A stretch of 64,000 nucleotides of DNA, taken from contig CAZTNI010000001.1 of NCBI GenBank assembly GCA_964615415.1, positions 25,290 to 89,289 on the forward strand, written 5' to 3'. Of the stretch, positions 16,512 to 51,602 are shown piece by piece. Within the stretch, counting starts at the first letter, position 1; each line of letters begins with the position of its first letter. This DNA is from an uncultured Candidatus Saccharibacteria bacterium. Lineage in GTDB: Bacteria; Patescibacteriota; Minisyncoccia; Phycocordibacterales; SBAW01. The notes below the pieces were generated by a model. The model was not told where the DNA came from, ran no database searches, and was given only the letters and a program-made list of their open reading frames with translations. The translations under genes and the position numbers were made by a program.

Positions 16512-18455
16512 TTATTTTGGCGCAACAATGTCCACTCCACCAGGACCACTGTCTCCTACTAGGCGTGTTGTCGACGGATTTGCCGTAGCGCGTACCGGCA
16601 CCTGCACAAAACGATCTTGGCCGGTTAACACTACTTCGCTTGTTAAGTCTGGCGACTTACCCACCTGGCTCGTACTTGGCACAATCGTTACCTGGAAGGC
16701 AGCCTGTAGTGCTGCTTGGGTGTACCCTACACCCGCTTTAATGTCACCAATGTTCCATCGCACAGTGCGACTTGCTGCGTCGTAGGTTATGCCGCTTCCT
16801 GAAGGACTCGACATAAATTGTACATAAGACGGCAGCGTTGCAGAGACAGACGCATTCGCAACGGTGTTTGCAGAGTTTTTCACTCCCCAGACAATCGTGT
16901 ACGAAGTCGCTTGTTCGGCGCGCGGCGGCATTGGTCCGATATTTTGGAAACCGCCCGTGTAGTGCAGCGTTTTTACATCAAGCGTTGCTTGGGACGCAAG
17001 CTGCACTCGCGCGGTCGCCGCAGATGCAACCGATTCCGGCGCCCCGCCACCTCCCTGACGCACACCGCGCACCTGTAAATTAAGTTCGATAGTTGGGTTT
17101 GTAATAAGCACGCCTGCTTCTCCGGGCTTCAGTGTACTAAATGAGAAGTGGAAGGTTCCTGTTTCGCCTGGCTGTACCGTCGCAAGAGAATTGTTTTGAT
17201 CTTTAGACCAAATAATCGCAGTTTGTGCGGATTGGTAAAATCCATTTCCGGCACTAATAGCATTTTTGTTAAGAGCAGGACCAGCAAATGACAAAATTAA
17301 CTCCACGTTTGAGACCGGATCAGGGAGATTGTTCTTCCACGTCACCGTACCTTCGAGCTGCTCGCCCGCAGCAACAGAGATAGTTTTTCCTGTTTGCCCC
17401 TCGACTGCGATCGTTGCAGAAATAAACGGCTGCCGCACGGTAACAGTCTGCGGCATGATAAGGAACGGGACTTTAATTTTTGTATCGGTCTGGTCGCTGT
17501 TTGACCCCGCAAAGAAGCGGAAGACGCGTTCATCACCATCTTGTCCTTCAAGGGCACCGGTAATTTTAATAGTGCGCGATGCGCCCGGCTGTAGTGTCCC
17601 TAGTCGCCAAAACGTACCCCCTGCATCTGCCTGTGGCTGTGTTGTTCCGACCGTAAATCCAAATGGATACTGTCCTTGCAGCACTAAATTCTCGACAGGC
17701 GTTGTTGCATTAGAACGCACGGTCACGTCCATAGAAATCTCACCCCCCGTTGTTGTGTCAGTTGGCGCAGATACAGTAATTGAAACGGGAGAGGAGCCTA
17801 TCGTGTACGTCGTTTCCGTTTGCTTTTGGAAAACTGCGTTTGAATTTTTAACACTATATTCAAGCGTTGCACGGATTGTTTGCGTTTCCCCTTCTTGTCC
17901 AAACACAAGAGCAGAAGCTGTTTGTTTTATTTGTTCACCTGCAGGAATCGTGCCAATAGTGTGACGGTCGTACGTCAGCTCCTGCGCTGGGTTAGCAGCA
18001 CTGCGCGTGCCATCCGGGTACGTCAAAATAAGATCCGCAAGCTCGAGGTCAGTTTGGTTGCGGTTGGTAATAATAAACTGGAATGTTGCTTCCTTTCCTC
18101 CATCAATCAAAGACGGTGCCACTATTTCAATATCGATGTTCTGTGGAGAGATAGTATTCACTCCTCCTAAAATCATATAAGCGGCGGCGGCAAGTGACAG
18201 GAAGAAGAACGCGGCCGAACCGAGCAAAAATTTAGTAGCCATAGACATACGAGATTTGGTTTGTAGTGGTTGTGACGGCTGAGGTACACCACTTGTTACA
18301 CCTTCCGGCGTTGCAGCAGGTTCCCAAGCACGAGGAGCATCTGCAGTGCTCGGACTAAGGCTCGAGCGGTCTTCTGCAGGCGGTTTAATATCACTTTGAC
18401 GAGCATAGAGCGCGCGTTTAAGCTTCTCTACCCCGCTTTTCTCTTCGGGAACCAT
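16512..18455 (-). CDS. hypothetical membrane-anchored protein with large Thr/Ser-rich extracytoplasmic domain
   Basis: 647 aa. ~70-aa cytoplasmic N-terminus, one TM (FLLGSAAFFFLSLAAAAYMIL), then an all-beta-like extracellular region. Confidence 0.55.
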   Translation of the reverse strand: MVPEEKSGVEKLKRALYARQSDIKPPAEDRSSLSPSTADAPRAWEPAATPEGVTSGVPQPSQPLQTKSRMSMATKFLLGSAAFFFLSLAAAAYMILGGVNTISPQNIDIEIVAPSLIDGGKEATFQFIITNRNQTDLELADLILTYPDGTRSAANPAQELTYDRHTIGTIPAGEQIKQTASALVFGQEGETQTIRATLEYSVKNSNAVFQKQTETTYTIGSSPVSITVSAPTDTTTGGEISMDVTVRSNATTPVENLVLQGQYPFGFTVGTTQPQADAGGTFWRLGTLQPGASRTIKITGALEGQDGDERVFRFFAGSNSDQTDTKIKVPFLIMPQTVTVRQPFISATIAVEGQTGKTISVAAGEQLEGTVTWKNNLPDPVSNVELILSFAGPALNKNAISAGNGFYQSAQTAIIWSKDQNNSLATVQPGETGTFHFSFSTLKPGEAGVLITNPTIELNLQVRGVRQGGGGAPESVASAATARVQLASQATLDVKTLHYTGGFQNIGPMPPRAEQATSYTIVWGVKNSANTVANASVSATLPSYVQFMSSPSGSGITYDAASRTVRWNIGDIKAGVGYTQAALQAAFQVTIVPSTSQVGKSPDLTSEVVLTGQDRFVQVPVRATANPSTTRLVGDSGPGGVDIVAPK

Positions 18456-18469
18456 ATCTCTAAAGTATA

Positions 18470-19051
18470 CTACAGGTGCGTCGCAGCCAAAGATTCATTG
18501 ATCGTGCGGATTAAAAAGCCCTTTACTACCTGAGCCTGGAGCGCAAGCTCCTCAGTAATATTCTCTTCACCTACAAATGGTGCAAGTTCAGAGATGCGTG
18601 GCACGTACCCCAGCTGGGACAATATACGCAACACAAGTACCCACTCGGCGCTTTCAATCTCTTCCTTCGTGTGAGACGCTGCAAAAAATGAAAACCCTTG
18701 GCGTACGGCGACGTACAGTTTGTCTCCCCGCTCTTCACCATGAATCAGACGAAGCAGGAGTCGCGAGACTCTCCCCACTGCAACTTTCCCCTCACGCGTC
18801 GAAGGTACAAGATCACGAGAAATAGTTTCTACTCCGGTCACTTTCCACTCATGCTTACCGCGCACAAATGAAAACCGTCCTTCGGTAAGCACCTCAAGGC
18901 CGTAGCGTAATTTAGATTTTCCTAAGCGAGCACTACGTGCAGTAGCGCGGATCAATCCGAGCTCTTTCGTAAAAATTGCAACTTGTGTATTAGCCTCTCC
19001 TACTCCACGTTTCGCTAACACCACTCCGTCGCTGACATGGATTTTATGCAT
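18470..19051 (-). CDS. recO: DNA repair protein RecO (short form)
   Basis: N-terminal OB-like DGVVLAKRGVGEANTQVAIFTKELGLIRATARSAR...EWKV. Central AEWVLVLRILSQLGY resembles the RecO helical domain. Confidence 0.6.
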   Translation of the reverse strand: MHKIHVSDGVVLAKRGVGEANTQVAIFTKELGLIRATARSARLGKSKLRYGLEVLTEGRFSFVRGKHEWKVTGVETISRDLVPSTREGKVAVGRVSRLLLRLIHGEERGDKLYVAVRQGFSFFAASHTKEEIESAEWVLVLRILSQLGYVPRISELAPFVGEENITEELALQAQVVKGFLIRTINESLAATHL

Positions 19052-19053
19052 AC

Positions 19054-22000
19054 CTATCCCTTCAGGGTAATACCCTGCACCAGTGCTGCCGCTGCAGCGT
19101 CTCCGACTTCTACCTCAAGTGCTGCAAGGCCGGTTTCTTCCATAATCTCTGATTTATATTTCACCACCAAAGCCTCGCCTTCAAGATTCGTCTGCATACT
19201 GACTTGAGGGCGATCACCGATTGAAAGATTCGCCTGCTTGCGGAATTCTTGCACGGCCCGAATCGTGTCACGCAAAAGTCCCTCTTCTTTCAATTCTGGA
19301 GTTAGAGTCGTATCAAGCAAGACTTCTCCTTCCATAGACGCGTCTTGGGTAAGCGCCTTAACATTAAGCTCGTCTTTGAGTATCTCTTGCACTTGTAGAT
19401 TCGTCGGCAGAACTTTCACCGCCATAGACGCAAGAGGTTGACGCACTTTAATCCCCGCCTTGTCACGCGCCTGGAGACCAAGCGACGCGAGCTTGCGTGT
19501 TGTTTCCATTTGCTCAATAAGCAACGTGTCAACATTTCCTGCAGTAGGCCACGACGTAAGGTGCACACTTTCCGCATCGCCGCCAACATCTTTATACAAA
19601 CGCTCTGCAATGAACGGCATAAGAGGAGCACTAAGCTGTGCGAGTGTCAGAAGCACATAACGCTGTGTTGCAAGCGCATACTGTTTGTCTTCTGCATCCT
19701 TCCCCTTCACGCGGTCACGCGAGCGGCGTACATACCACGTAGAATAATCATCAATGAACGATCGCAGCGCGCGGCAAGCACCCGGGGTGTCGTACGCATC
19801 AAGCGCAGCAGTGATCGAAGAAGTGGTTTGATTAAGACGCGACAGTACCCAACGGTCGAGTACATGCGTACTGTTTGCTGCTTGTGTTGAGCCATCATAC
19901 TCCGCCTTGTAGAGCTCGAAAAACTTATAGCAATTCCAGAGCATCTGCACGACGCGATTATGTACCTCGCGCACTTCCTCGTCGCGGAAACTAAAGTCCT
20001 CTGCCTGCATCACCACACTGTTCATGAGGTAAAAGCGCATCGCATCCGCACCAAACATGTCCATCACCAAAAGCGGGTCGGTGTAGTTACCCTTCGACTT
20101 CGACATCTTCGAGCCGTCATTAGCAAGAATATTGCCCGTGGTCACAACGTTACGGAACGACAACTTATTAAACAGGAGTACGCCCATAGCGTGCATGTAG
20201 TAAAACCAGGTGCGCGTCTGTGCAATATACTCGGCAATAAAGTCTGCCGGGTATGCTTTCGGACGCAATCCAAAGAAGCGCTCCGGATTCACCACATCTT
20301 TTTTCATCGGGTAGTGCTCGGATGCAAACGGCATAGCGCCGGACTCCACCCAACAGTCGATGACTTCCGGAATGCGTTCATACTGTCTCCCCTTCTCGTC
20401 TACGAGCGTAATCGCGTCTATGTATGGTCGATGCAAGTCGAGATCGTACTGTTTTGTGTGTGGAAACGGCACAAAGTCGATCGGGCGGATTTCTCCATTA
20501 CGCAAAAACACTACGTCTCCAGCGCCTGCAATACACTCCGCAATAGTTTTACGCTCGACAATCGTGTTAAGAAGCCACGCCGGGCGCTCATGTGTCACGA
20601 TCAAAATATTTTTCCCCGCATAGCGACGCTCAATTTCAAAAATAAAGTCGCCGACACGCTCGCGGATCTGGGTATATGTCTCTGCGCCATCAGTCACGGT
20701 AGTAAATGGATCGCCATGGCTGTTAAACGACGCGCGCCACTCGATAACCGGCTTTCCGTTAAATATACCTACGTCGATTTCTCGCAGACGCTCATCAACC
20801 ATTACTGCCGAGTCCGACACACCAAGGACCTTTTGTGCGATCTTTGCTGTCTCGCGCGTACGTACCAGGGGCGACATGATAATGAGGTCGATTTTATTTT
20901 TTTGCGCAAATGTTTTTACTTGCGCTTCGACTCCTGCCTTCCCCTCTTCAGTCAGGTGGTTATTCGGGTCGCCCTTAGAGTCGAAAATCTGGTCGACATT
21001 GCTCTTCGCCTGACCATGACGCATCACAAAATATTTGTTGCCCGAGCGTTTTGTCTTTTTTGTCAGCTCGTCGATGCTACCCACCACCATAACCTTGTCA
21101 CCTTTCTTTTCCTTCCAAATAGGAAGTGGCGACGCCCAAAAACGATTGCGGGAAATGGTCCAGTCCGGCGCATTCTCCAGATTATTCTTAAAGCGGCCAT
21201 GCTTTAGGTGTTCAGGCACCCAGGTGATTTTTTCGTTTTCAGAAAGCATCTTTGCCTTCACCTTTTGGATATTGATGAACCAAGACCCGACCGCGTTGTA
21301 AATAAGTGGCGTGCCGCAGCGGTAGCAGTGTGGGTACGAGTGCGTATGCGGCTCTTTTTTATAGAGCAGCCCGCGCTTTTCTAGATCTTCTTTAATAAAT
21401 TTCTCTCCTTTTTTAAGATACTGACCACGCAGTGCTTCTGGAACAAGATCGTTATACGTCCCGTTTGCATTCAAAAGCTGCACCATCGGCAACTTTTCTT
21501 TCTGTCCGAGCGCAAAGTCGTCTTCACCGTACATTGGCGCAATGTGCACGATACCAGTACCGTCTGCAGTCGTTACAAAGTCTCCTGCAACTACGACGTA
21601 CTTTTTCCCTTTTACTCCTGCGATAGCAGGCACAGCAAAGAGAGGCTCGTATTCAACTCCAAGCAGTTCTGCACCCATGAGCGCCTTCACTACTTTTGAA
21701 CCTTCCGGCATGCGCTCTGCGGCCATGAGCAAATGCTCAACGCCTTCTTGTACCACTACGTACGAAATATCTTTTCCTACCGCAAGCGCTACATTACCCG
21801 GCAAGGTCCACGGCGTTGTCGTCCACGCAACGATAGATGTGTTTTGCGGCAGACCAGACTTCTCAGGATTTTTTATTTTAAATTTTACGTACGCGGTTTC
21901 TTCCGTAATATCTTTGTACGTGTTGTCCATCGCGATCTCCGCCTTTGCAAGCGGTGTTTCGCAGTGCGTACAGTACATCAAGACCTTGCGACCTTCGTAG

Positions 22001-22506
22001 AGCAGCTTCTTGCTATCCAAACGCTTAAGCGCCCACCAGACAGACTCGATGTACGAGTTGTCCATCGTCTTGTAGGAGTTTTTAAAGTCGACAAAGCGAC
22101 CAACACGGTCGACATACTTCTCCCAGTCGTCCACGTAGCGCAGCACCATCGAGCGTGCGGTTTCATTAAACACATCGATGCCGATATTGAGAATATCTTT
22201 CTTGCTCTTAAGCTCGAGCTTCTTCTCGACCATGCTTTCGATAGGTAGACCGTGCGTGTCCCAACCCCACCGGCGTGGAACATGGTAGCCGCGCATCGTT
22301 TTATAGCGCGGAATTACGTCTTTAATGACAGAAGAAAGGAGCGACCCCGAGTGCGGCAAGCCGGTCGCAAATGGTGGACCATCATAAAAAATAAACTCGC
22401 CCTTTGGAGACTTCTTTTGGAGCGACTTTTCAAAAATATGATTCTCTTTCCAGAAGGCAAGCACTTCCTCCTCGCGCTTGGCAACTTCCGACTTCCCGGT
22501 CGACAT
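19054..22506 (-). CDS. ileS: isoleucyl-tRNA synthetase, type 2 (eukaryote-like), carrying an inserted histidine-phosphatase-like domain
   Basis: FYDGPPFATGLPHSGS...RRWGWDTHGLPIE, TTPWTLPGN editing domain, KMSKSKGN. Residues ~491-690 match His_Phos_1 motifs (MRHGQAKSN, SPLVRTRETA, IVTHE). Confidence 0.9.
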   Translation of the reverse strand: MSTGKSEVAKREEEVLAFWKENHIFEKSLQKKSPKGEFIFYDGPPFATGLPHSGSLLSSVIKDVIPRYKTMRGYHVPRRWGWDTHGLPIESMVEKKLELKSKKDILNIGIDVFNETARSMVLRYVDDWEKYVDRVGRFVDFKNSYKTMDNSYIESVWWALKRLDSKKLLYEGRKVLMYCTHCETPLAKAEIAMDNTYKDITEETAYVKFKIKNPEKSGLPQNTSIVAWTTTPWTLPGNVALAVGKDISYVVVQEGVEHLLMAAERMPEGSKVVKALMGAELLGVEYEPLFAVPAIAGVKGKKYVVVAGDFVTTADGTGIVHIAPMYGEDDFALGQKEKLPMVQLLNANGTYNDLVPEALRGQYLKKGEKFIKEDLEKRGLLYKKEPHTHSYPHCYRCGTPLIYNAVGSWFINIQKVKAKMLSENEKITWVPEHLKHGRFKNNLENAPDWTISRNRFWASPLPIWKEKKGDKVMVVGSIDELTKKTKRSGNKYFVMRHGQAKSNVDQIFDSKGDPNNHLTEEGKAGVEAQVKTFAQKNKIDLIIMSPLVRTRETAKIAQKVLGVSDSAVMVDERLREIDVGIFNGKPVIEWRASFNSHGDPFTTVTDGAETYTQIRERVGDFIFEIERRYAGKNILIVTHERPAWLLNTIVERKTIAECIAGAGDVVFLRNGEIRPIDFVPFPHTKQYDLDLHRPYIDAITLVDEKGRQYERIPEVIDCWVESGAMPFASEHYPMKKDVVNPERFFGLRPKAYPADFIAEYIAQTRTWFYYMHAMGVLLFNKLSFRNVVTTGNILANDGSKMSKSKGNYTDPLLVMDMFGADAMRFYLMNSVVMQAEDFSFRDEEVREVHNRVVQMLWNCYKFFELYKAEYDGSTQAANSTHVLDRWVLSRLNQTTSSITAALDAYDTPGACRALRSFIDDYSTWYVRRSRDRVKGKDAEDKQYALATQRYVLLTLAQLSAPLMPFIAERLYKDVGGDAESVHLTSWPTAGNVDTLLIEQMETTRKLASLGLQARDKAGIKVRQPLASMAVKVLPTNLQVQEILKDELNVKALTQDASMEGEVLLDTTLTPELKEEGLLRDTIRAVQEFRKQANLSIGDRPQVSMQTNLEGEALVVKYKSEIMEETGLAALEVEVGDAAAAALVQGITLKG

Positions 22507-22528
22507 AAAGCAAAATATAGCACTTTTG

Positions 22529-24214
22529 CTACATTTTTTCAGGTGCTGGAATACCTAATACATGGAGACCCTTCGCGAGCGTTTGCTCCACCGCTTCCGT
22601 AAGCAAGACACCATAGTGCGGATTACTGCCCCCTATTACTCGTTCGTTTGCATACCAACTGTTAAATGCTGCGGCGAGTTCGGTTATATACGTCGTTACA
22701 TAGTGTGGCTCAAGTTCTTTCGCAGCACGCTCAACTGCGTCTGGGAAATGCAGCAGCGTTTTTTCAAGCACCGAGGCAGTAAGAGGAGCATCACTTGTAT
22801 TCCCTACTATCCCCGCCTCCTTGGCAGCATTCATGAGAGAGAGTGCTCGCGTGTGTGCGTACTGTATATACGGACCAGAATCTCCTTCGAGCGAGAGCGA
22901 CTTTGCCGGATCGAAAATAATATCTTTGCCGCTCCCCTGCTTTAACACTTCGTACTTAATACCTCCCACGGCAACCTCTTCTGCAATCTTGTCAGCATCA
23001 GGAAGGTTTCGGTCGCGCATTTTTTCCTTCGCGTCTTCCGTAAGCTCAGCAATGAGCGACTCGCCGGTAATAACGTTCCCCTTGCGAGACGACATTTTCC
23101 CCGAGGCAAAACGCATCATGCCGTGCGTGACGTGTTTTGTTTTTGCAGCAATGTCTGCAATTGCGGGAATCTGCTTCGCGGCAGCAAGCACCACTTTAAA
23201 ATAATCTTTCTGCTCGCTTGCAGTTACTGTAATAGACTCATCCACGCTCACTGTCTCTTGTTTGAGCTGCAAAAGCCCGAGGTCTTTTGCCTCGTATGTT
23301 GGCAACCCCTGCGACGTTATGAAAACGCGCGTATGCTCGCCATGAAAAACAATCGCTCCTTCGCTTTCCTCAAACACATTTTTATTCTCGTTTACTAACT
23401 GAAGCGCGATCGGCGCTGTCTGACTTTCAAAAAAGTAATGGTCAAACTTTGTACCTAACACTTTGTACAACTCTTCAAAATGCTCGAGTGATTCCTTGCG
23501 GCCCTGGTCATAGAGCGCGCTCACCGTAGCGTCGCTCTTGTCGTACACTTTTTTATTTATCGCATCGATCTCCTCTTTATGTGCCTCGTACTCGTTGTTT
23601 CCATAGACATACGCCTCGCCCCAGCGGAGTTCTGGTTTTTGCATCCTGCCCCAGATTGCCTTCGCCACATGCTGCCCCACATCACCTTGGTAGTTAGCCC
23701 GAATTACTTGCGCACCACCGCGCTCGAGCAAGCGTGCAACACTTTCCCCTATTGTGTTGCTCATGAGATGACCAATATGAAACTCTTTAAAAGGGTTCGG
23801 GTCGGTAAATTCAACCATTATTTTCTTGCCGGCATAGACGCTATTCTTCCCCCACGGCTCTTTTGTTGCAGCCTCTACCTCGCTCGTTATCGCATCGCGC
23901 GAGAGAAAGAAGTTTATAAAACCTGCACCTGCAACTTCAATTTTTTCTATTGACGAAAGCGACGAACCGCCAAACAGCTTCACTAAAAGTCCTGCAGATT
24001 TAGTTTTAGAAAATTTCGTTTTCAAGATTTCACTCAACTGTTCCGCGACTTCACGCGGATTTTTCTTCAAAGACTTTGCTGCCGCAAGAGCGGCGTTTGT
24101 AGAATAGTCACCATGCGCCATGTCCCCGGGCCGCTCCACAACAAAAGACACATCCCCCGCTTGTAGGCTTTGGAGGGCTTCTTTTACTGCCGCTTCTATA
24201 GACTCTCGTATCAC
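22529..24214 (-). CDS. argS: arginyl-tRNA synthetase
   Basis: NPFKEFHIGHLMSNTIGE (HIGH), add-1 N-terminal domain, DALR-like C-terminus. Start assigned to in-frame GTG at 24212-24214 (alternative ATG at 24121). The ORF-track extension to 24754 runs through the high-GC island and an upstream terminator and is low-complexity Arg/Ser sequence. Confidence 0.8.
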   Translation of the reverse strand: MIRESIEAAVKEALQSLQAGDVSFVVERPGDMAHGDYSTNAALAAAKSLKKNPREVAEQLSEILKTKFSKTKSAGLLVKLFGGSSLSSIEKIEVAGAGFINFFLSRDAITSEVEAATKEPWGKNSVYAGKKIMVEFTDPNPFKEFHIGHLMSNTIGESVARLLERGGAQVIRANYQGDVGQHVAKAIWGRMQKPELRWGEAYVYGNNEYEAHKEEIDAINKKVYDKSDATVSALYDQGRKESLEHFEELYKVLGTKFDHYFFESQTAPIALQLVNENKNVFEESEGAIVFHGEHTRVFITSQGLPTYEAKDLGLLQLKQETVSVDESITVTASEQKDYFKVVLAAAKQIPAIADIAAKTKHVTHGMMRFASGKMSSRKGNVITGESLIAELTEDAKEKMRDRNLPDADKIAEEVAVGGIKYEVLKQGSGKDIIFDPAKSLSLEGDSGPYIQYAHTRALSLMNAAKEAGIVGNTSDAPLTASVLEKTLLHFPDAVERAAKELEPHYVTTYITELAAAFNSWYANERVIGGSNPHYGVLLTEAVEQTLAKGLHVLGIPAPEKM

Positions 24215-24242
24215 GTATATAACACTAGCATTTGTAGGCTGT

Positions 24243-24282
24243 ATAAAAAAGAAAGAGCCGGTTCCATTTCTGGAACCGGCTC
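24243..24282 (-). terminator. rho-independent terminator for the island gene
   Basis: gagccggttcc agaaat ggaaccggctc followed by tttcttttttatac on the minus strand. Confidence 0.7.
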
Positions 24283-24311
24283 GAATCGAACTCGGGTGTA
24301 CTTGCTCGGTG

Positions 24312-25358
24312 TTAGCCGAGCGGCAAGAAGGTGCCGACGGTGTCGACACGGTCCGAGAAGACCTTGTACACCTGCACCTGGCCGTTCTGCTCGACTCGGT
24401 CGAGAGCCACGAACGTCCCACCGTTGAGGCCGGCCTTCCGGGCCTCCTGCACGGTCTCCATGCTGGGGTAGATCTGCACGTCGTGCACATCATCCCCGAT
24501 CTCCATGAGAACCGTACGAAGCGGCTTCGGCGCGGACGCCGAGACCATGCCGCGAAGAACGGGCTGCGGCGTAACGACCGCCTTCCCGACCTTCTTGGCA
24601 CCCTGGCCGCGAGGCTTCTCGATCTTGAACGCTTCGAGGAGCTTGCCGACCGTCTTGGTTTCCTCGTCGAAGGACTCGACGAGGATGACGGTCGTTCCGT
24701 GCGGCAACACCATCCACTCGGACGTGGTGACGGGAATGCCCCGCCGCCGCGCACCCTGCGCGTCGAAGCCGAAGATCACGTCGCGCGCGAGAAGCCGGTC
24801 GATCTTCGCCTGCTTCTGCGCCTGACGAGCAGCAACTTCCGCCGCACGCTGTGCATCCTCGGCAGCATTGCGCTGCCGGGCCGCCTCACGCGCAGCAGCC
24901 TCGTCCTTGGAGAAGACGAGCCTCTCCTTGTCGTTGAGGACAAAGCCCCGGCCGAGATACTCGGCAGCAGCCTCCTTGAGCAGGATCCGCTTCCGGATCC
25001 CCGAAGGCTCGTTGTTGACGAACGACGCAAGCGTGCGAACCTTTTCGATCCGCCCTTCACGACCCTTGCCAACGAGGGCGATGACCGGAGTGTCTCCCGC
25101 CATCGCCAGGATGCCGACACCGTCGAAGTCTTCCATGCCGGCGACGGCCTGGAAGGACCAGACCAGCTCGTCATCGATCGAGATCTTCGCGAGCACGAAG
25201 TTGAAGTGCTCCGGCAGATCCTTCTTGCGAAGAAGCTCGAGTTCGAGGGTCTTCCCCTCGACTTCGATCGTGCCGATCTCGACGTAGTGAGTCGAAGTGT
25301 CCTTGTTCTCGATGGTCACGAAACCAGGGAAGGAAATGCGGGAAACAATAGCGGTCAT
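24312..25358 (-). CDS. hypothetical two-domain protein with central Ala/Arg/Gln coiled coil, encoded in a high-GC island
   Basis: 348 aa of normal complexity. AGGAGG SD 6 nt upstream of ATG. GC3-rich codons (gtc gac acg gtc cga gaa gac...). The antisense ORFs here (430 aa on the plus strand and others) are low-complexity artifacts. Confidence 0.6.
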   Translation of the reverse strand: MTAIVSRISFPGFVTIENKDTSTHYVEIGTIEVEGKTLELELLRKKDLPEHFNFVLAKISIDDELVWSFQAVAGMEDFDGVGILAMAGDTPVIALVGKGREGRIEKVRTLASFVNNEPSGIRKRILLKEAAAEYLGRGFVLNDKERLVFSKDEAAAREAARQRNAAEDAQRAAEVAARQAQKQAKIDRLLARDVIFGFDAQGARRRGIPVTTSEWMVLPHGTTVILVESFDEETKTVGKLLEAFKIEKPRGQGAKKVGKAVVTPQPVLRGMVSASAPKPLRTVLMEIGDDVHDVQIYPSMETVQEARKAGLNGGTFVALDRVEQNGQVQVYKVFSDRVDTVGTFLPLG

Positions 25359-34708: not shown

Positions 34709-34781
34709 GGGTGCCTACTGGGAATCGAACCCAGATTGCGAGTTCCACAAACTCGAGTGTTAACCGTTACACCATAGGCAC
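34709..34781 (-). tRNA. tRNA-His (anticodon GTG) with G-1:C73
   Basis: Hand-folded. 8-bp acceptor GGTGCCTA/TAGGCACC. Anticodon loop TTGTGGA. T-arm CTGGGTTCGATTCCCAG. Confidence 0.85.
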
Positions 34782-34845
34782 CATATCTAGCACGCTCATG
34801 TTACAGCCGCGCACCATGTAGCTAACTATATATCAGAGTGCGCAC

Positions 34846-35841
34846 TTATGCGCCAGGCTCCGAAGAAGTTTCTTTTGGTTTAAATGGGTATGCACTGCCC
34901 GTAATAGGAGCAGGCTTGATAACAAGACTTAACACGACAGACGCCACCAACACGGTAAGCGTAATACTGAGTGACAACACGGTTGGGATCTTAAAGATAT
35001 CCATGAGCAGCATTTTTGTACCGATAAACCCGAGGATAATTGCAAGACCATAGGAGAGCAGGTGGAAGCGTTCATGTAAGCCTGCGAGCAAGAAATACAG
35101 AGCACGAAGTCCTAAAATCGCAAATATATTTGAGGTAAGCACAATGAACGGATCTGTGGTGACTGCGAAGATTGCAGGGATTGAATCGACCGCAAAGAGA
35201 ATGTCGACAAGACCTATCATAATAACCGCGGCAAGGAGCGGTGTCGCTGCTTTGGCACCATTGTGTAGGGTAAAAAATTTCTCCCCTTCTAGCTTTGGAG
35301 CAATTTTAAGCCCGCGCCGCAGGAGTTTCATTGCAACACTACTTTCCAAGTCGGGCTCTTTGCCGATAGAGCGCCAAATTTTGATACCCGTATAGACCAA
35401 GAATCCGCCGAATATGTAGAGCACCCAGTGAAATTCTGAAATGAGCCACGCGCCGACAAATATCATAATTGCGCGGAGTACGATCGCAAACAAAATACCG
35501 AACATAAGGAGCCGCTTTTGAAATTCTGCAGGCACCGCAAAGAACGTAAATACGAGCAAGAATACGAAAATATTATCGACAGCGAGCGCCTTTTCGATCA
35601 AGTAGCCGGTAATAAACTCGAGCGACTTCTGGTTTGCAATCGCCTGTGCTGCAGGGTCAGCGCTCGCGCCTCCTAAGTACCACCACAGCCACCCCACAAA
35701 CACGAAGGATAGGAAGACCCATGCCACAGACCATATCCCCGCTTCTTTAAGCGACACTTTGTGCGCCCCTTGTTTGCGCATGGCAAAAAAGTCGACACAA
35801 AGAGCAATCGTAACAAACACAATAAAGATTATCCAAACCAT
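34846..35841 (-). CDS. TerC-family integral membrane protein
   Basis: KALAVDNIFVFLLVF signature. Multi-TM. Confidence 0.85.
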   Translation of the reverse strand: MVWIIFIVFVTIALCVDFFAMRKQGAHKVSLKEAGIWSVAWVFLSFVFVGWLWWYLGGASADPAAQAIANQKSLEFITGYLIEKALAVDNIFVFLLVFTFFAVPAEFQKRLLMFGILFAIVLRAIMIFVGAWLISEFHWVLYIFGGFLVYTGIKIWRSIGKEPDLESSVAMKLLRRGLKIAPKLEGEKFFTLHNGAKAATPLLAAVIMIGLVDILFAVDSIPAIFAVTTDPFIVLTSNIFAILGLRALYFLLAGLHERFHLLSYGLAIILGFIGTKMLLMDIFKIPTVLSLSITLTVLVASVVLSLVIKPAPITGSAYPFKPKETSSEPGA

Positions 35842-35848
35842 ACAATGT

Positions 35849-35933
35849 GTGGTGCCCAGGAGAGGACTCGAACCTCCAAGCCTTGCGGCATATGCACCTC
35901 AAGCATACGCGTATACCAATTCCGCCACCTGGG
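35849..35933 (-). tRNA. tRNA-Leu (anticodon GAG), long variable arm, CCA encoded
   Basis: GCCCAGG acceptor. Anticodon arm TATGC-TTGAGGT-GCATA. Variable arm TGCCGCAAGGC. T-arm GGAGGTTCGAGTCCTCC. Confidence 0.85.
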
Positions 35934-35974
35934 CATGTAGAACACTATATACCAAAAAGCGCGTTGTCGCGCTT

Positions 35975-36403
35975 TTACTCCTGCACAGGAGCTGCTTCTG
36001 GAGCCGACGCAACTTCCTCTGAGGTTGAAGGAGTCTCGCGAGCCTCGACTGTCTCCTGCTTGCGCATCTGACGTTTTACATCGCGAGCAGCCTTGCGACG
36101 AATAAAGTACAGTTTTGAGCGGCGCGTACGAGTACGGCGCAACACTTCAACAGACTCGATTGCAGGAGAATAGAGCGGGAAGATTTTCTCTACCCCTACC
36201 CCGCTTGCAACGCGACGTACGGTAAACATTGCACCTGCTTCGGTGCCATGTTTAACCGCCAAAACAAGGCCCTCGAACGCCTGACGGCGGCTCTTGCCCT
36301 TCTCGACGATCTTCTGCCATACGCGGACAGTGTCGCCACTACGAAGCTCGAGCGCTGCGCGCTCCTTCATGTCGACTGGGGATGTTTTAACCGCTGATTT
36401 CAT
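35975..36403 (-). CDS. rplS: 50S ribosomal protein L19 (with C-terminal extension)
   Basis: LRSGDTVRVWQKIVEKGKSRRQAFEGLVLAVKHGTEAGAMFTVRRVASGVGVEKIFPLYSP. Confidence 0.9.
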   Translation of the reverse strand: MKSAVKTSPVDMKERAALELRSGDTVRVWQKIVEKGKSRRQAFEGLVLAVKHGTEAGAMFTVRRVASGVGVEKIFPLYSPAIESVEVLRRTRTRRSKLYFIRRKAARDVKRQMRKQETVEARETPSTSEEVASAPEAAPVQE

Positions 36404-36497
36404 GTGGAAACTACTTTAGCACGGAGACATACGTCTGTCTAGAAAATGGTCTGGCCCGAGAGGTTCCAAGCCGATACGGGAGAACCGAGGACCTTTT

Positions 36498-37232
36498 CTA
36501 GGCAGATGTTGTCGCAGATGATAAACGCTGCTCTGCCTCTACAAAATCTTTAGGCAACGGGGCCTCAAAAAGTACTTCCTCCCCTGTTTCCGGGTGCCTA
36601 AAGGTAAGCGAGAGCGCATGGAGTGCGAGGCGCTCAAAACCAAGGATAGCTGGCCGCCCTGGCGCATACATAGAGTCTGCAACGATAGGATGTTGGATAG
36701 AAGCAAAGTGTACACGGATCTGGTGTGTACGGCCTGTCTTTGGAAACACTTCTGTATATGACGCTTCTTTAGTGCGGGCAATAACCCGAAATGCGGTTTG
36801 TGCGTCTCGCAACGTACCCTTCGCATCGCGCTTTGCCGTACGTGGACCTTTTCCGCCTCGACCTGAACCGATTGGTTTGTCGATTATGCCGCGTTCATCT
36901 TTAAGCTCGCCGTAAACAAACGCGCGGTACGCTTTCTTCACTTCTCGATTTTGAAATTGCGCTTTAAGCACATCGAACGCTTCCTGTGTGCGTGCCGCCA
37001 CCAACACACCCGACGTTTCGCGGTCGATGCGGTGCACAATACCCGGACGCTCAATAAGCGAACCGTCTTGGAGTCGCTGCTCTTCCCCTACTCCCTTTAT
37101 TTCTGGATATTCGGCAACAAGCCAGTCGACAAGAGTCTTCCAGTCATGTTTACCGTCGGCATGTACAGCAAGACCTGCAGGTTTATTAAGTACCAAGATG
37201 GAATCGTCTGCGTAGATGACTGTCGGCTGCAT
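36498..37232 (-). CDS. RluA-family pseudouridine synthase
   Basis: GIVHRIDRETSGVLVAART catalytic motif. Start set at the internal MQPTVIYADD because the longer track ORF overlaps tRNA-Val. Confidence 0.8.
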   Translation of the reverse strand: MQPTVIYADDSILVLNKPAGLAVHADGKHDWKTLVDWLVAEYPEIKGVGEEQRLQDGSLIERPGIVHRIDRETSGVLVAARTQEAFDVLKAQFQNREVKKAYRAFVYGELKDERGIIDKPIGSGRGGKGPRTAKRDAKGTLRDAQTAFRVIARTKEASYTEVFPKTGRTHQIRVHFASIQHPIVADSMYAPGRPAILGFERLALHALSLTFRHPETGEEVLFEAPLPKDFVEAEQRLSSATTSA

Positions 37233-37243
37233 TGTTTCTTTTG

Positions 37244-37316
37244 TGGGCGATACAGGACTCGAACCTGTGACCTTCTCTGTGTAAAAGAGTTGCTCTACCA
37301 ACTGAGCTAATCGCCC
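37244..37316 (-). tRNA. tRNA-Val (anticodon TAC)
   Basis: GGGCGAT/ATCGCCC acceptor. D-arm GCTCAGTTGGTAGAGC. Anticodon loop TTTACAC. T-arm CAGGTTCGAGTCCTG. Confidence 0.85.
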
Positions 37317-37442
37317 GTTCCATGCACAATACCAAGTTTATATCTGGGTCACAAGTCGAATTTTCTCGTCAGAAAATTCGCTCGCGACCCCGGCTCGCGG
37401 TTTCGCAAAACGCGAAACATCGCTACGCCCGACCAACGTATC

Positions 37443-37466
37443 AGAAAAACTGCCTCAAGGCAGTTC
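37443..37466 (-). terminator. rho-independent terminator downstream of tRNA-Arg(TCT)
   Basis: ctgccttgaggcag followed by tttttctga on the minus strand. Confidence 0.5.
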
Positions 37467-37476
37467 TTTCTGTCGT

Positions 37477-37551
37477 TGGTCCCCCCGGAGGGAATCGAAC
37501 CCCCATAACCGGCTTAGAAGTCCGGTGTTCTATCCATTGAACTACGAGGGG
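37477..37551 (-). tRNA. tRNA-Arg (anticodon TCT), C1:G72, CCA encoded
   Basis: CCCCTCG/CGGGGGG acceptor. D-stem GTTC/GAAC. Anticodon loop CTTCTAA. T-arm GGGGGTTCGATTCCCTC. Confidence 0.75.
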
Positions 37552-38159
37552 AGGAGGTGCAAGTAGAGGGTACCATACGCAACAAAAATCGCGAGAACAA
37601 CGAACGCAAACCAGAGGAAATATTTATTTACAACGGCAATAATTTGCGGACCGAATTTATACGAAAAGTAGCCGACAATCCAGATGCGCGCCGCGCGTCC
37701 TAAAAACATACCCGCCGCATATCCAATAAACGAAATTCCTAAAAATCCGGCAAGATACGTAAACGGCTTGTCTGGCAATAACGTAAACGCGATAAAAAAC
37801 ATAACAAAGAAAATGTTCCCATCGAGCAGTTGCTGTGTTACCTGGTGCGCCTCCCCTGCTCCTGTCCACTGCAGGAGGGCCTCGCCAAAGCCCTTAAACA
37901 TGAACATGCCGATAAGGTAGCCGGTGATACCGCCAAGGAAGGTAAAGATAGTCGTGAGCACCATGTAGAATTTCCACTTCTCGCGACGCGCCAAAATCAT
38001 CGCAGTCATAAGCGCTTCCGGCACTATCGGAGAAATAAAAGGCTCGAGGTACGACAGAAAACACAGCCAAAAAATGCCGTGCGGACCCTGCGCACGCGCA
38101 GCAAACCACGCCCACGACTTTTCCTTAATAGTCGTGATGTGCTCGAAGATAACGTGCAT
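37542..38159 (-). CDS. DedA/VTT-domain family membrane protein
   Basis: 205 aa, multi-TM, with a LLxG...GRAARI-like DedA pattern. The last 3 codons overlap the 5' end of tRNA-Arg(TCT). Confidence 0.5.
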   Translation of the reverse strand: MHVIFEHITTIKEKSWAWFAARAQGPHGIFWLCFLSYLEPFISPIVPEALMTAMILARREKWKFYMVLTTIFTFLGGITGYLIGMFMFKGFGEALLQWTGAGEAHQVTQQLLDGNIFFVMFFIAFTLLPDKPFTYLAGFLGISFIGYAAGMFLGRAARIWIVGYFSYKFGPQIIAVVNKYFLWFAFVVLAIFVAYGTLYLHLLPS

Positions 38160-38170
38160 GCGAAAAATAG

Positions 38171-38497
38171 TTAGCGAACCGTAGAGCCTGGCGTTGCAGT
38201 CGTTTCAAATAGGGACAGCGGTTCTTCCCCGCCCCCAGTTGCAAGGATCATTGCCTGACTCTCCATACCCATCATCATGCGTGGCGCAAGATTTGTTACA
38301 AACGGACAACGCTTTCCTACCAACACTGTAGGGTCTGGAAAATATGCCGCAATGCCTGAGAGCACTTGGCGATCCTCGTTACCAAAATTAACCTGCAATT
38401 TAAGCAGCTTGTCGCTCCCTTCAATCTTTTCCGCAGACTTAATTTCTCCGATGCGGATCTCTACCTTCTTAAAATCATCAATTGAAATTTGTTCCAT
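38171..38497 (-). CDS. free-standing tRNA-binding domain protein (CsaA/Trbp111/EMAP-like; MetRS C-terminal-domain homolog)
   Basis: FKKVEIRIGEIKSAEKIEGSDKLLKLQVNFGNEDRQVLSGIA is an OB-fold tRNA-binding motif. The MetRS in this window lacks this domain. Confidence 0.7.
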   Translation of the reverse strand: MEQISIDDFKKVEIRIGEIKSAEKIEGSDKLLKLQVNFGNEDRQVLSGIAAYFPDPTVLVGKRCPFVTNLAPRMMMGMESQAMILATGGGEEPLSLFETTATPGSTVR

Positions 38498-38525
38498 ATA
38501 TTCTTCAGTAAAACGTTCTTTGATC

Positions 38526-38942
38526 TTACTCCTTATTGCGATTACGGTCGAGATAACTCTGGAGTATGACTGCCGCCGCAGCTGCGTCTAACTTATCTTG
38601 CGAGGGATTTTGCTTACGAGACCCATCTGGCGCATATTGCCTAGCTGCGGCTGCGCTCGACATAAACTCAGCTTCATACACCACTTCTTTTCCGGTTAGT
38701 TCATGAAGATCTTTCTTAAATTGCTCAATATCTTCCATGACCAAGTTCGGCTCGTTCTGAAAATTGCGCGACTCGCCAAGGATAATTTTTTCCGCACCAC
38801 TTTTTTGCACCTCTTCAGCAACGTTCGCCAAAGCCTCCTTCCCTGCCTCAACTACAGCAAGCGGAAATGCGAGACTGCCTGTGTCGTCGGACACTGCAAG
38901 TCCGATACGCTTCGTCCCATAATCAATGCCTATGTACTTCAT
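38526..38942 (-). CDS. ruvX: Holliday junction resolvase-like RuvX/YqgF
   Basis: MKYIGIDYGTKRIGLAVSD. Start at the internal ATG because the track ORF N-terminus overlaps tRNA-Ser. Confidence 0.8.
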   Translation of the reverse strand: MKYIGIDYGTKRIGLAVSDDTGSLAFPLAVVEAGKEALANVAEEVQKSGAEKIILGESRNFQNEPNLVMEDIEQFKKDLHELTGKEVVYEAEFMSSAAAARQYAPDGSRKQNPSQDKLDAAAAAVILQSYLDRNRNKE

Positions 38943-38948
38943 CTGTGC

Positions 38949-39033
38949 GGAGGGGGTGAGATTCGAACTCACGGTACCTTGCGGTACTCCTGTTTTCAAG
39001 ACAGGTGCGATAGACCACTCTGCCACCCCTCCA
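38949..39033 (-). tRNA. tRNA-Ser (anticodon TGA), long variable arm
   Basis: GGAGGGG/CCCCTCC acceptor. Anticodon arm CCTGT-CTTGAAA-ACAGG. T-arm GTGAGTTCGAATCTCAC. Confidence 0.85.
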
Positions 39034-39080
39034 ATGCAACACACAATAACCTATAAAAGTCTGGGTGTATACTAGTAGCA

Positions 39081-39554
39081 ATGAACCCTGGAGAAGACAA
39101 GGAGTTTTCTTGGAGTACACAAACGCATGAACACCGAGAGCATAGTACCGACTGGTACTGGACATTTATTGTGGGAGCCTTGGCGCTCGCAGGCTTCGCT
39201 GTCTTTCTTGGAAATATTCTTTTTGCGATTATCGTTGTGATGGGTATTGGATCCATCCTCTTCCTTGCAGCACGCGGCCCTCGCGAGCATGTTATCCGTA
39301 TTGATGAGCGCGGTGTGTCAGTCGACGGAACTCGCTATCCGTTTAACGCAATCCACTCATTTTGGATCGAGCGTGGTGTCGAAACACCTCGTCTATTTAT
39401 AACCATGAACGGAGTCCTTTCTCCCCACCTGTCGATCCCTCTCTCAAACAAAGAAGAGGCTCTTAAAGTACAGCAACTGCTCAGCCGCGTTCTGACAGAA
39501 GAAGAGCAAGGACCTCATTTTGGAGAGAACTTGGCCCGCCTTATCGGGCTCTAG
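39081..39554 (+). CDS. hypothetical two-TM membrane protein
   Basis: 157-aa ORF divergent from tRNA-Ser. Confidence 0.45.
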   Translation: MNPGEDKEFSWSTQTHEHREHSTDWYWTFIVGALALAGFAVFLGNILFAIIVVMGIGSILFLAARGPREHVIRIDERGVSVDGTRYPFNAIHSFWIERGVETPRLFITMNGVLSPHLSIPLSNKEEALKVQQLLSRVLTEEEQGPHFGENLARLIGL

Positions 39555-39597
39555 AAATTTCCTCTATTTCGTTGTATTCTCAACATTGCTTCCTTAT

Positions 39598-39669
39598 GCC
39601 CTTGTCGTTCAATGGATAGGACGGCAGCTTGCGGAGCTGCTGATGTAGGTTCGATTCCTACCAGGGGCA
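39598..39669 (+). tRNA. tRNA-Arg (anticodon GCG)
   Basis: GCCCTTG/CAGGGGC acceptor. Anticodon arm GCAGC-TTGCGGA-GCTGC (G37). T-arm GTAGGTTCGATTCCTAC. Confidence 0.7.
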
Positions 39670-39675
39670 CACGAT

Positions 39676-47043: not shown

Positions 47044-47074
47044 ACGAGGGTTTTCAACAGTGAGGACACCTATG

Positions 47075-47146
47075 TCCTCTCGGCAAGAATCGAACTTGCA
47101 TCTCCTCCTTCGGAGGGAGGCGTTCTATCCATTGGACTACGAGAGG
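47075..47146 (-). tRNA. tRNA-Arg (anticodon CCG), C1:G72
   Basis: CCTCTCG/CGAGAGG acceptor. Anticodon arm CCTCC-CTCCGAA-GGAGG. T-arm GCAAGTTCGATTCTTGC. Confidence 0.75.
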
Positions 47147-51513: not shown

Positions 51514-51587
51514 GCGCCCATAGCTCAGTTTGGTAGAGCGGCTCCCTTTTAAGGAGAAGGTCCTTGGTTCAAATCCAAGTGGGCGCA
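51514..51587 (+). tRNA. tRNA-Lys (anticodon TTT)
   Basis: GCGCCCA/TGGGCGC acceptor. D-arm GCTCAGTTTGGTAGAGC. Anticodon loop CTTTTAA. T-arm CTTGGTTCAAATCCAAG. Confidence 0.85.
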
Positions 51588-51602
51588 CAAATATCCCTGA
51601 CC

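Follow-up and report, generated by a model that had tools for sequence, protein, structure and literature searches.

The isoleucyl-tRNA synthetase (IleRS) encoded in a 64,000-nt stretch of DNA from Candidatus Saccharibacteria bacterium GCA_964615415.1 (contig CAZTNI010000001.1, positions 25,290-89,289; hereafter the window, meaning the whole stretch that was analysed) contains, inside its own catalytic body, an insert that by its signatures and predicted fold is a complete branch-1 histidine phosphatase domain with the full catalytic set. This phosphatase most likely represents a Patescibacteria subfamily dedicated to IleRS, found either nested in the CP3 module of the synthetase or as a separate gene abutting or overlapping the start of ileS. 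The best overall explanation, to which we give a probability of about 0.5, is that the nested domain is an accessory enzyme of IleRS, supplied in cis here and in trans in sister lineages.

A phosphatase domain nested in CP3 of IleRS

The landmarks of the gene and of the nested domain are the following (window coordinates; aa, amino acids of the protein):

19054..22506, minus strand: ileS, type-2 isoleucyl-tRNA synthetase with the nested phosphatase, 1150 aa (TIGR00392 and AlphaFold2 model)
22342..22353, minus strand: HIGH signature, reading H52-S-G-S55 in translation, with a non-canonical fourth position
21328..21918, minus strand: CP1 editing domain, aa 197-393, matching the isolated Thermus thermophilus (Tth) CP1 structures 1wk8 and 1wny
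21055..21132, minus strand: N-terminal half of CP3 (SPLPIWKEKKGDKVMVVGSIDELTKK), aa 459-484, aligning with Tth 454-479
20443..21054, minus strand: whole insert (N-linker TKRSG, phosphatase core, C-linker DFVPFPHTKQYD), aa 485-688, delimited by the break relative to 1ile
20479..21039, minus strand: His_Phos_1 core, aa 490-676, from PF00300, AlphaFold2, Foldseek and free-standing homologues
21016..21021, minus strand: R496-H497, predicted catalytic Arg and nucleophilic His of the RHG motif, from the translation
20998..21000, minus strand: N503 of RHGxxxxN, kept in 118 of 120 close homologues
20860..20862, minus strand: R549 of SPLxR, predicted second phosphate-binding Arg, from the translation
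20779..20781, minus strand: E576, predicted general acid, kept in 120 of 120 close homologues
20590..20592, minus strand: H639, predicted second catalytic His, kept in 119 of 120 close homologues and in 64 of 64 nested domains
20359..20442, minus strand: C-terminal half of CP3, aa 689-716, aligning from Tth 488 onward
20095..20109, minus strand: KMSKS signature, aa 800-804

The ileS gene is one unbroken ATG-to-stop open reading frame (ORF), and profile and structure comparisons assign its product to the type-2 (Thermus/eukaryote-like) IleRS, as the housekeeping copy of a Patescibacteria (Paceibacteria/Parcubacteria) genome. The NCBIfam ileS equivalog TIGR00392 scores 836.2 bits on the whole protein (cut-off 621.4), in a match that is split by the insert, and Pfam finds tRNA-synt_1 in two halves with His_Phos_1 between them, followed by Anticodon_1 and DUF5915 (PF19302), the C-terminal domain that type-2 enzymes have where type-1 enzymes carry a zinc-binding one. 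Among solved structures, sequence comparison places T. thermophilus 1ile nearest (E 2.5e-206, 691 bits), then Priestia megaterium IleRS2 8c8u (656 bits) and, after these, the yeast, Candida and human cytosolic enzymes; type-1 IleRS score under half as much (8c9e 316 bits, 1ffy 301 bits). The full-length AlphaFold2 model (pLDDT 86.8, pTM 0.76) gave a Foldseek ranking that agrees with the sequence, with E-values of 1e-79 to 1e-64 to type-2 IleRS. The closest named relatives, at ~60% identity, are from Adlerbacteria and Kaiserbacteria. The protein falls below the cut-offs of the mupirocin-resistance models MupA/MupB (NF000257/8; 667 and 652 bits against 1900) and of the GNAT-bearing IleRS model (NF040702; 321.6 bits against 1999), and Pfam gave no GNAT match in it.

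The host looks like a functional synthetase because its editing-site signatures and KMSKS are invariant: CP1 keeps WTTTPWT, GTGIVH and the conserved Asp (W228-T234, G316, G318, H321 and D330 are invariant in 57 sequences), and the K, S, K and S of KMSKS are the same in 120 of 120 close homologues. The fourth His of the class-I HIGH signature normally contacts ATP; in the same 120 homologues this position is Ser in 104, Asn in 8 and His in 7. A tie between the HSGS variant and the phosphatase was considered and rejected, since HSGS is confined to the window's own clade and the other patescibacterial IleRS lineages, with a nested or an adjacent phosphatase, keep HYGH. From this distribution, HSGS is a non-canonical active-site motif of that clade and has no tie to the phosphatase.

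The insertion site lies in mid-CP3, as judged from the CP3 limits in the yeast and Candida IleRS domain definitions (PMC7955072, PMC7191050) and from the Tth alignment; CP3 is a surface module whose topology varies among IleRS (PMC7955072, PMC7191050). The 1ile alignment ends at query residue 484 (Tth 479) and restarts at query residue 689 (Tth 488), the insert taking the place of an eight-residue loop (Tth 480-487). The N-terminal CP3 half also aligns to ScIleRS, up to residue 492, and comparison with the insert-less IleRS of Minisyncoccus gives identical junctions (...GSI, then DLHRP...). The linkers are conserved (S488-G489-N490; F678 and P682) and are modelled with high confidence (AlphaFold2 pLDDT ~90), which suggests an attachment that is fixed in orientation rather than floppy.

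As to the insert itself, PF00300 matches aa 493-646 with E-values of 7e-30 to 1.1e-28 (100.6-104.6 bits; gathering threshold 21.7). Modelled alone, the insert reaches an AlphaFold2 pLDDT of 97.1, and Foldseek places it, with probability 1.00 and TM scores of 0.76-0.78, beside PspA 4ij6, PhoE 1h2e and the riboflavin-pathway phosphatase HFP 9mmh. Mycobacterial GpgP, CobC and TIGAR are further fold neighbours (TM 0.68-0.78 over all small phosphatases); the nearest structures are small phosphatases and none is a long-tailed mutase. Checked against the C-terminal mutase tail of dPGM, the phosphatase domain ends after ~187 aa and then rejoins IleRS. The domain stays below the cut-offs of the dPGM models (dPGM_arch 69-72 bits against 225, GpmB 39-43 against 261) and of the PspA (48-52 against 350), CobC (59-63 against 163) and SixA (37-40 against 74.5) equivalogs, and the free-standing Minisyncoccus phosphatase is likewise under the PspA, CobC and SixA cut-offs. 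The best phosphatase-type NCBIfam match of the window protein, NF005567, gives 85 bits against a cut-off of 326. The net charge of the domain is ~0, which is uninformative as a hint of RNA binding.

The catalytic residues were followed in the 120 close homologues and in a wider set of 64 nested domains (both tandem copies included) and 37 free-standing domains. R496 is kept in 119 and H497 in all 120 of the close homologues; in the wider set, the RHG Arg is found in 63/64 and the His in 64/64 nested domains, and both in 36/37 free-standing ones, the exception being a gap. R549 is kept throughout (120/120, 64/64 and 37/37), and the position of E576 is E or D in all 101 nested and free-standing domains. 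Such conservation points to purifying selection on the full catalytic set, and the domain is probably an active phosphomonoesterase that works by the family mechanism.

These results bear out every checkable part of the initial annotation of this DNA, which had been made from the sequence alone. Its central claim, an in-frame histidine phosphatase domain in ileS, is borne out by the single ORF, the fold and a significant His_Phos_1 match, above the 21.7 threshold, the scan it had proposed as a check. Re-translation recovers the phosphatase motifs where it had placed them (R496-H497-G, N503, S545-P-L-V-R549, E576 and H639). It had also described the host as a type-2 (eukaryote-like) IleRS, in line with 1ile and 8c8u scores over twice those of type-1 enzymes; it had taken the flanks to be contiguous in type-2 IleRS, as the junctions at query 484/Tth 479 and query 689/Tth 488 confirm; and it had put the insert between the editing domain and KMSKS, a position now specified as CP3, where other IleRS have a short loop. 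The coordinates that it gave for the domain, 20437..21036 (aa 491-690), identified the approximate region; its limits are here re-set to aa 485-688 for the insert and aa 490-676 for the core.

Distribution and conservation of the nested form

In all of the 120 best database homologues (57-67% identity, 1007-1205 aa), PF00300 occurs alongside the IleRS domains, and their named sources are Paceibacterota, Adlerbacteria, Kaiserbacteria, Parcubacteria and Minisyncoccia. When one genome per species was scanned, at least 57 loci were returned, ~50 of them IleRS with the domain at the same site (signature DWxISR, ~47 aa, RHG ... HRPY) and with labels that include Taylor-, Nomura-, Zambryski-, Wolfe- and Giovannonibacteria. 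The survey of orthologues that the initial annotation had suggested thus finds the architecture in 120 homologues and in ~50 species-representative loci. In public databases it stands unremarked, in entries called, for example, "class I tRNA ligase family protein", "isoleucyl-tRNA synthetase" or "hypothetical protein". Public taxonomic labels are partly doubtful among the related loci; "Saccharibacteria" stems from automated bins. One contig labelled "Spirochaetia bacterium" (L005, QYPD01000003.1) encodes a nested-phosphatase IleRS whose domain clusters with a Wolfebacteria sequence, and is probably a mis-binned patescibacterial contig. An apparent decayed "remnant" of the insert at another locus (L058) was discarded, because the public record has that stretch masked with N.

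In Peregrinibacteria/Peribacteria, the IleRS (1465-1490 aa; L045, L049-L054) has two tandem phosphatase copies at the same CP3 site. A metagenomic IleRS (P0187) has at least four copies, and in P0155 one copy is displaced to a position after KMSKS. The catalytic residues are kept in every copy of the tandem arrays, including those of P0155, P0187 and P0249. The tandem duplication is old, since the domain tree groups first copies with each other and second copies with each other. Overall, the insert diverges faster than the IleRS core (34-58% vs 58-68% identity).

The free-standing form and its linkage to ileS

A search with the insert alone against 1.84 billion cluster representatives returned 560 proteins at E<=1e-10. 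The best 150 of these 560 are mostly IleRS or IleRS fragments, and ~40 are stand-alone proteins. The stand-alone proteins are 185-213 aa long, can be aligned with the nested domain over their full length and have the same subfamily marks, an N-x-Y before strand 1 and a terminal G-E-(I/V)-R strand. In nine of the ten informative cases, that is, stand-alone genes with enough contig around them, the gene (~190 aa) lies directly upstream of an insert-less type-2 ileS, its usual position being between argS and ileS. The arrangements are as follows (HP, histidine phosphatase):

Minisyncoccus archaeiphilus PMX.108 (complete genome, NZ_AP038758.1): HP (L043, 3983-4570) and ileS (L043, 4567-7527) overlapping by 4 nt, the ileS scoring 866 bits on TIGR00392
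Two Staskawiczbacteria metagenome-assembled genomes and UBA4067: HP directly 5' of ileS
P0166: argS-HP-ileS-x-recO-CLIPPER
P0157: argS-NUDIX-x-HP-ileS-x-recO
P0217: argS-HP-ileS
P0206 and P0231: HP, then ileS
P0154: HP elsewhere, ileS not adjacent

By locus, the order argS-HP-ileS is seen at L031, L060, L065, L066 and L067. In the window, ileS has these neighbours:

22529..24349, minus strand: argS, 606 aa, directly upstream of ileS (gene calls and Pfam)
18470..19051, minus strand: recO-like gene directly downstream of ileS (RecO_N match)
16512..18455, minus strand: 647-aa protein after recO, with a weak CLIPPER match

The window order argS-ileS-recO-CLIPPER-like is therefore the frame of the relatives, with the phosphatase inside ileS rather than before it. 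Among nested loci, argS is directly upstream of ileS in 21 of the 41 with enough flank and recO is downstream in 25 of 51, an order that also occurs at L060 and L065. Both forms of the phosphatase together were found in none of 65 loci (0/65), and no second phosphatase copy was found in the 64-kb window.

The trees, which are distance-based (neighbour-joining), are star-like and do not tell whether the upstream gene or the nested domain came first. In the domain tree, the stand-alone genes whose position next to ileS was checked in context form one clade; the other sequences scored as stand-alone, of which some may be fragments, lie dispersed among nested ones. The IleRS tree requires 2-5 switches between the nested and free states in 100 of 100 bootstraps. 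The history could possibly have been one of several relocations, or of an ancient duplication followed by reciprocal loss. At one locus with a free-standing phosphatase (L067, 1248..1502), the ileS downstream of it reads G-V-H-H, not H-x-G-H, which resembles the altered HIGH reported for mupirocin hyper-resistant IleRS2 (compare PDB 8c8w).

Other fusion partners and a second insertion hotspot

In rare cases the phosphatase subfamily is also fused to the C-terminus of TsaC/Sua5 (threonylcarbamoyl-AMP synthase, t6A), namely in four clusters, and one of these TsaC-phosphatase genes adjoins the genes for a CCA-adding enzyme, TGT, queuosine salvage and TruD. The C-terminal partners of patescibacterial TsaC (proteins P0230 and P0271-P0387; loci L068-L070) comprise an Ogt-type DNA_binding_1 (the commonest), TruB, His_Phos_1, a 2H cyclic phosphodiesterase/LigT, MPG, GNAT and NUDIX. 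A further site prone to insertion in patescibacterial IleRS lies between SG(A/S)MPYA and FPADFI. Two proteins, each a single metagenomic representative, illustrate it by their predicted domains: P0254 has a P-loop kinase there (AAA_18/AAA_33; aa 737-869) in addition to the CP3 phosphatase, and P0222, a patescibacterial IleRS with both phosphatase and GNAT, has the GNAT there (aa 935-1063) as well as a RAYT/IS200-like Y1 transposase domain inside CP1 (aa 326-472). The kinase of P0254 was dropped as a functional lead, as its PDB matches are marginal (APS kinase, shikimate kinase, Pnkp1; E ~0.02-0.06). The PADLOC defence models gave zero matches for the insert, its free-standing homologue, P0254 and P0222. 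The P-loop kinase and the 2H cyclic phosphodiesterase on patescibacterial IleRS/TsaC are other RNA end-healing chemistries. The fusion data cut both ways: the partners are tRNA-centred, yet many small enzymes are fused to essential translation genes in these bacteria.

Proposed function and alternative explanations

That the domain assists IleRS, and does not simply perform a separate task, is in our estimate about even to slightly favoured. The reasons are that the interchange between cis and trans forms mirrors that of ProRS-INS and YbaK, and that the partners IleRS and TsaC, together with the neighbours argS, CCA enzyme, TGT and TruD, are tRNA enzymes. By the mechanism of its family, His497 would attack a phosphomonoester and form a phospho-enzyme, with Arg496, Arg549 and Asn503 holding the phosphate; Glu576 would protonate the leaving group and His639 would assist. 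The substrate is probably a tRNA- or nucleotide-linked phosphate. The preferred candidate is a phosphate or pyrophosphate at the 2'/3' terminus of tRNA, or a phosphomonoester of the nucleotide type, and the phosphate would be removed before or during aminoacylation of tRNA(Ile). 2',3'-cyclic or 3'-phosphate ends, and toxSAS-pyrophosphorylated CCA ends, block aminoacylation, and the bacterial CCA-adding enzyme, through its HD domain, offers a precedent for joining a healing phosphatase to an enzyme of the tRNA 3' end. By this analogy the substrate could be a terminal phosphate on tRNA(Ile) itself, a specific proposal that we hold only tentatively and consider rather unlikely to be right; were the domain to act on tRNA, the synthetase would repair and charge it in one encounter. 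The same doubtful standing applies to the notion that the nested domain is the first histidine-phosphatase-fold enzyme acting on tRNA.

Several observations weigh against an accessory role. The nearest characterised relatives act on small metabolites or nucleotide-like substrates, and with a net charge near zero no obvious RNA-binding surface was seen on the domain. Domains that seem unrelated (GNAT, Ogt, MPG, RAYT-like) are likewise found on patescibacterial IleRS and TsaC, and fusion in this phylum may not always imply a shared mechanism. The phosphatase gene of P0154 lies away from ileS, and ileS operons elsewhere hold unrelated genes (E. coli ribF-ileS-lspA). Much of this favours a different explanation, less probable in our view but the strongest of the alternatives, in which the domain is a metabolic phosphatase (of phosphoserine, sugar-phosphate or nucleotide type) that the cell needs independently of IleRS. 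It would have been captured from the conserved argS-ileS operon into a permissive loop in a streamlined genome, with IleRS as a carrier that guarantees expression. In its favour are the closest solved relatives, which are metabolite phosphatases, the neutral net charge, the nature of CP3 as a variable surface module, the free-standing member P0154 and the promiscuous fusion suggested by GNAT, P-loop kinase and RAYT-like domains on IleRS and by Ogt, MPG, NUDIX and GNAT on TsaC. A passenger of this kind does not sit well with an ileS linkage that is kept in two physical, mutually exclusive forms over deep lineages, nor with the retention of catalytic residues in all tandem copies. Moreover, the other known partner, TsaC, is again an adenylate-forming enzyme of a tRNA pathway, and the cut-offs of the named metabolic equivalog models were all missed.

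A further alternative, which we regard as improbable, keeps the link to IleRS and changes the substrate: the phosphatase would either clear pyrophosphate (PPi) or AMP for the adenylate-forming IleRS and TsaC, or act as a protein phosphatase, freeing IleRS of an inhibitory phosphate that a kinase had added. IleRS and TsaC, as assigned by Pfam, both make an acyl-adenylate and release PPi, and one of the weak NCBIfam matches is to SixA. That some histidine phosphatases act on proteins (SixA, PGAM5 and Sts-1) and others cleave phosphoanhydrides also counts for this explanation, and there are precedents for the kinase that such an antidote would oppose: HipA phosphorylates GltX and HipT phosphorylates TrpS. 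However, there is no reason why IleRS alone among ~20 synthetases would need clearance of PPi or AMP, no kinase partner was seen in the window, and the scores for SixA and the other named models are far under their cut-offs.

It is very unlikely that the domain is a catalytically silent module, whether a structural spacer or a ligand-sensing pseudo-enzyme that modulates IleRS. The initial annotation had left room for an inactive structural module, and the insert is indeed less conserved overall than the IleRS core; however, more than 100 copies that share 30-58% identity, all tandem copies included, hardly vary in the five catalytic residues or in N503, and free-standing orthologues exist. Lastly, an artefact can be set aside with near certainty, be it a chimeric assembly or frameshifted gene pair (the ORF is continuous, >170 homologous genes show identical junctions, GC content is flat at 0.49-0.52 over insert and flanks, and contigs from two or more sequencing runs, as well as an NCBI record with a 316-kb contig, encode the very same protein, so that the misassembly the initial annotation had allowed for is ruled out) or an intein or mobile element (Pfam gave no Hint/intein match, and the junctions TKRSGN... 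and ...PHTKQYDLD do not fit).

Relation to known systems

The host shares with the type-2 IleRS (1ILE, 8C8U and the eukaryotic cytosolic enzymes) the order of Rossmann fold, CP core, CP1 editing domain, CP2, CP3, anticodon-binding domain and DUF5915-type domain. It differs from them in ~200 extra residues in the CP3 loop and in HSGS for HIGH, and it lacks the zinc cysteines of Tth CP3. The insert, in turn, has the fold, the length (~190-200 aa) and the R-H-N-R-E-H set of the small branch-1 phosphatases (PspA 4IJ5/4IJ6, PhoE/YhfR 1H2E, GpgP Rv2419c 4PZ9, CobC 6E4B, HFP 9MMH and TIGAR). Unlike these, to which it is only 20-24% identical, it has the N-x-Y before strand 1 and an H-x-x-P-x-W-L-L motif, and it is tethered to IleRS at both ends.

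Among synthetases, a close parallel is given by the editing domain INS of bacterial ProRS, as against YbaK/ProX, and by AlaX. As with the IleRS insert, the lineage decides whether the auxiliary catalytic module is built into the catalytic domain of the synthetase or made as a protein of its own; the difference is that INS, YbaK and AlaX are aminoacyl-tRNA deacylases, whereas the IleRS insert is a predicted phosphomonoesterase. The NCBIfam family NF040702 (ileS with GNAT) is a curated precedent for an IleRS with an extra catalytic domain, which there is a GNAT and here a phosphatase. Precedents for a nucleic-acid enzyme joined to a phosphatase are the HD phosphatase/2',3'-cyclic phosphodiesterase of the CCA enzyme, T4 Pnkp and the RNase H/acid phosphatase Rv2228c (NF005567). 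Like the window protein, these physically link a phosphoesterase with an enzyme that works on tRNA or RNA; the fold of the insert differs from the HD domain of the CCA enzyme and from the HAD fold of Pnkp. No histidine phosphatase of the insert's clade is known to act on RNA ends, and phosphomonoesterase chemistry is not known from accessories of aminoacyl-tRNA synthetases.

The known add-ons of aminoacyl-tRNA synthetases are editing, tRNA-binding or protein-interaction modules. That synthetases acquire extra domains is thus not new in itself; what is unusual here is the added chemistry, the nesting in the catalytic body and the duality of cis and trans forms. New relative to the initial annotation are the lineage-wide occurrence in Patescibacteria, the alternation of the nested form with a gene upstream of ileS, the tandem repeats and the fusion to TsaC. 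A full-text literature search, whose coverage is incomplete and which gives absence of evidence only, found nothing on an IleRS or other aminoacyl-tRNA synthetase with a histidine phosphatase or phosphoglycerate mutase, Candidate Phyla Radiation and Parcubacteria included; within that coverage, the initial annotation was right to know of no precedent.

Other features of the window

Only 22 nt (22509..22530) separate the stop codon of argS from the ATG of ileS, and they are filled by a perfect 7-bp inverted repeat, AGCAAAA-N8-TTTTGCT, which could form a small hairpin affecting translational coupling or transcript processing. The mechanical 741-aa GTG ORF for argS (22529..24754) is an over-extension, the gene call on the identical contig giving 606 aa. 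An ORF of 348 aa (24312..25358, minus strand) overlaps the argS start by 38 nt, has no Pfam match and is Ala/Arg/Glu-rich in its middle; within it, at window positions 24200..24950, GC content climbs from ~0.49 to 0.57-0.66. The window has eight tRNA genes (His, Leu, Val, three Arg, Ser and Lys), none of them tRNA-Ile, at 34709..39670 (five tRNAs within 5 kb), 47074..47146 and 51514..51588.

Implications

A conserved phosphatase that is interchangeable between a nested and an operon form would imply a phosphate-removal step linked to the formation of isoleucyl-tRNA, which lies outside current schemes. The Patescibacteria are a very large and mostly uncultured radiation with minimal genomes, in which the genes that are kept, and fused to essential genes, reveal indispensable functions; Minisyncoccus archaeiphilus, which is cultured, carries the two-gene version. 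Should the substrate prove to be tRNA, the histidine-phosphatase fold would gain a kind of RNA repair that is new to it, and the result would be a new form of quality control by an aminoacyl-tRNA synthetase, possibly a counter-measure to tRNA-targeting toxins. Should it instead be a metabolite, the nested domain would clearly illustrate how, in reduced genomes, an essential gene can capture a domain neutrally.

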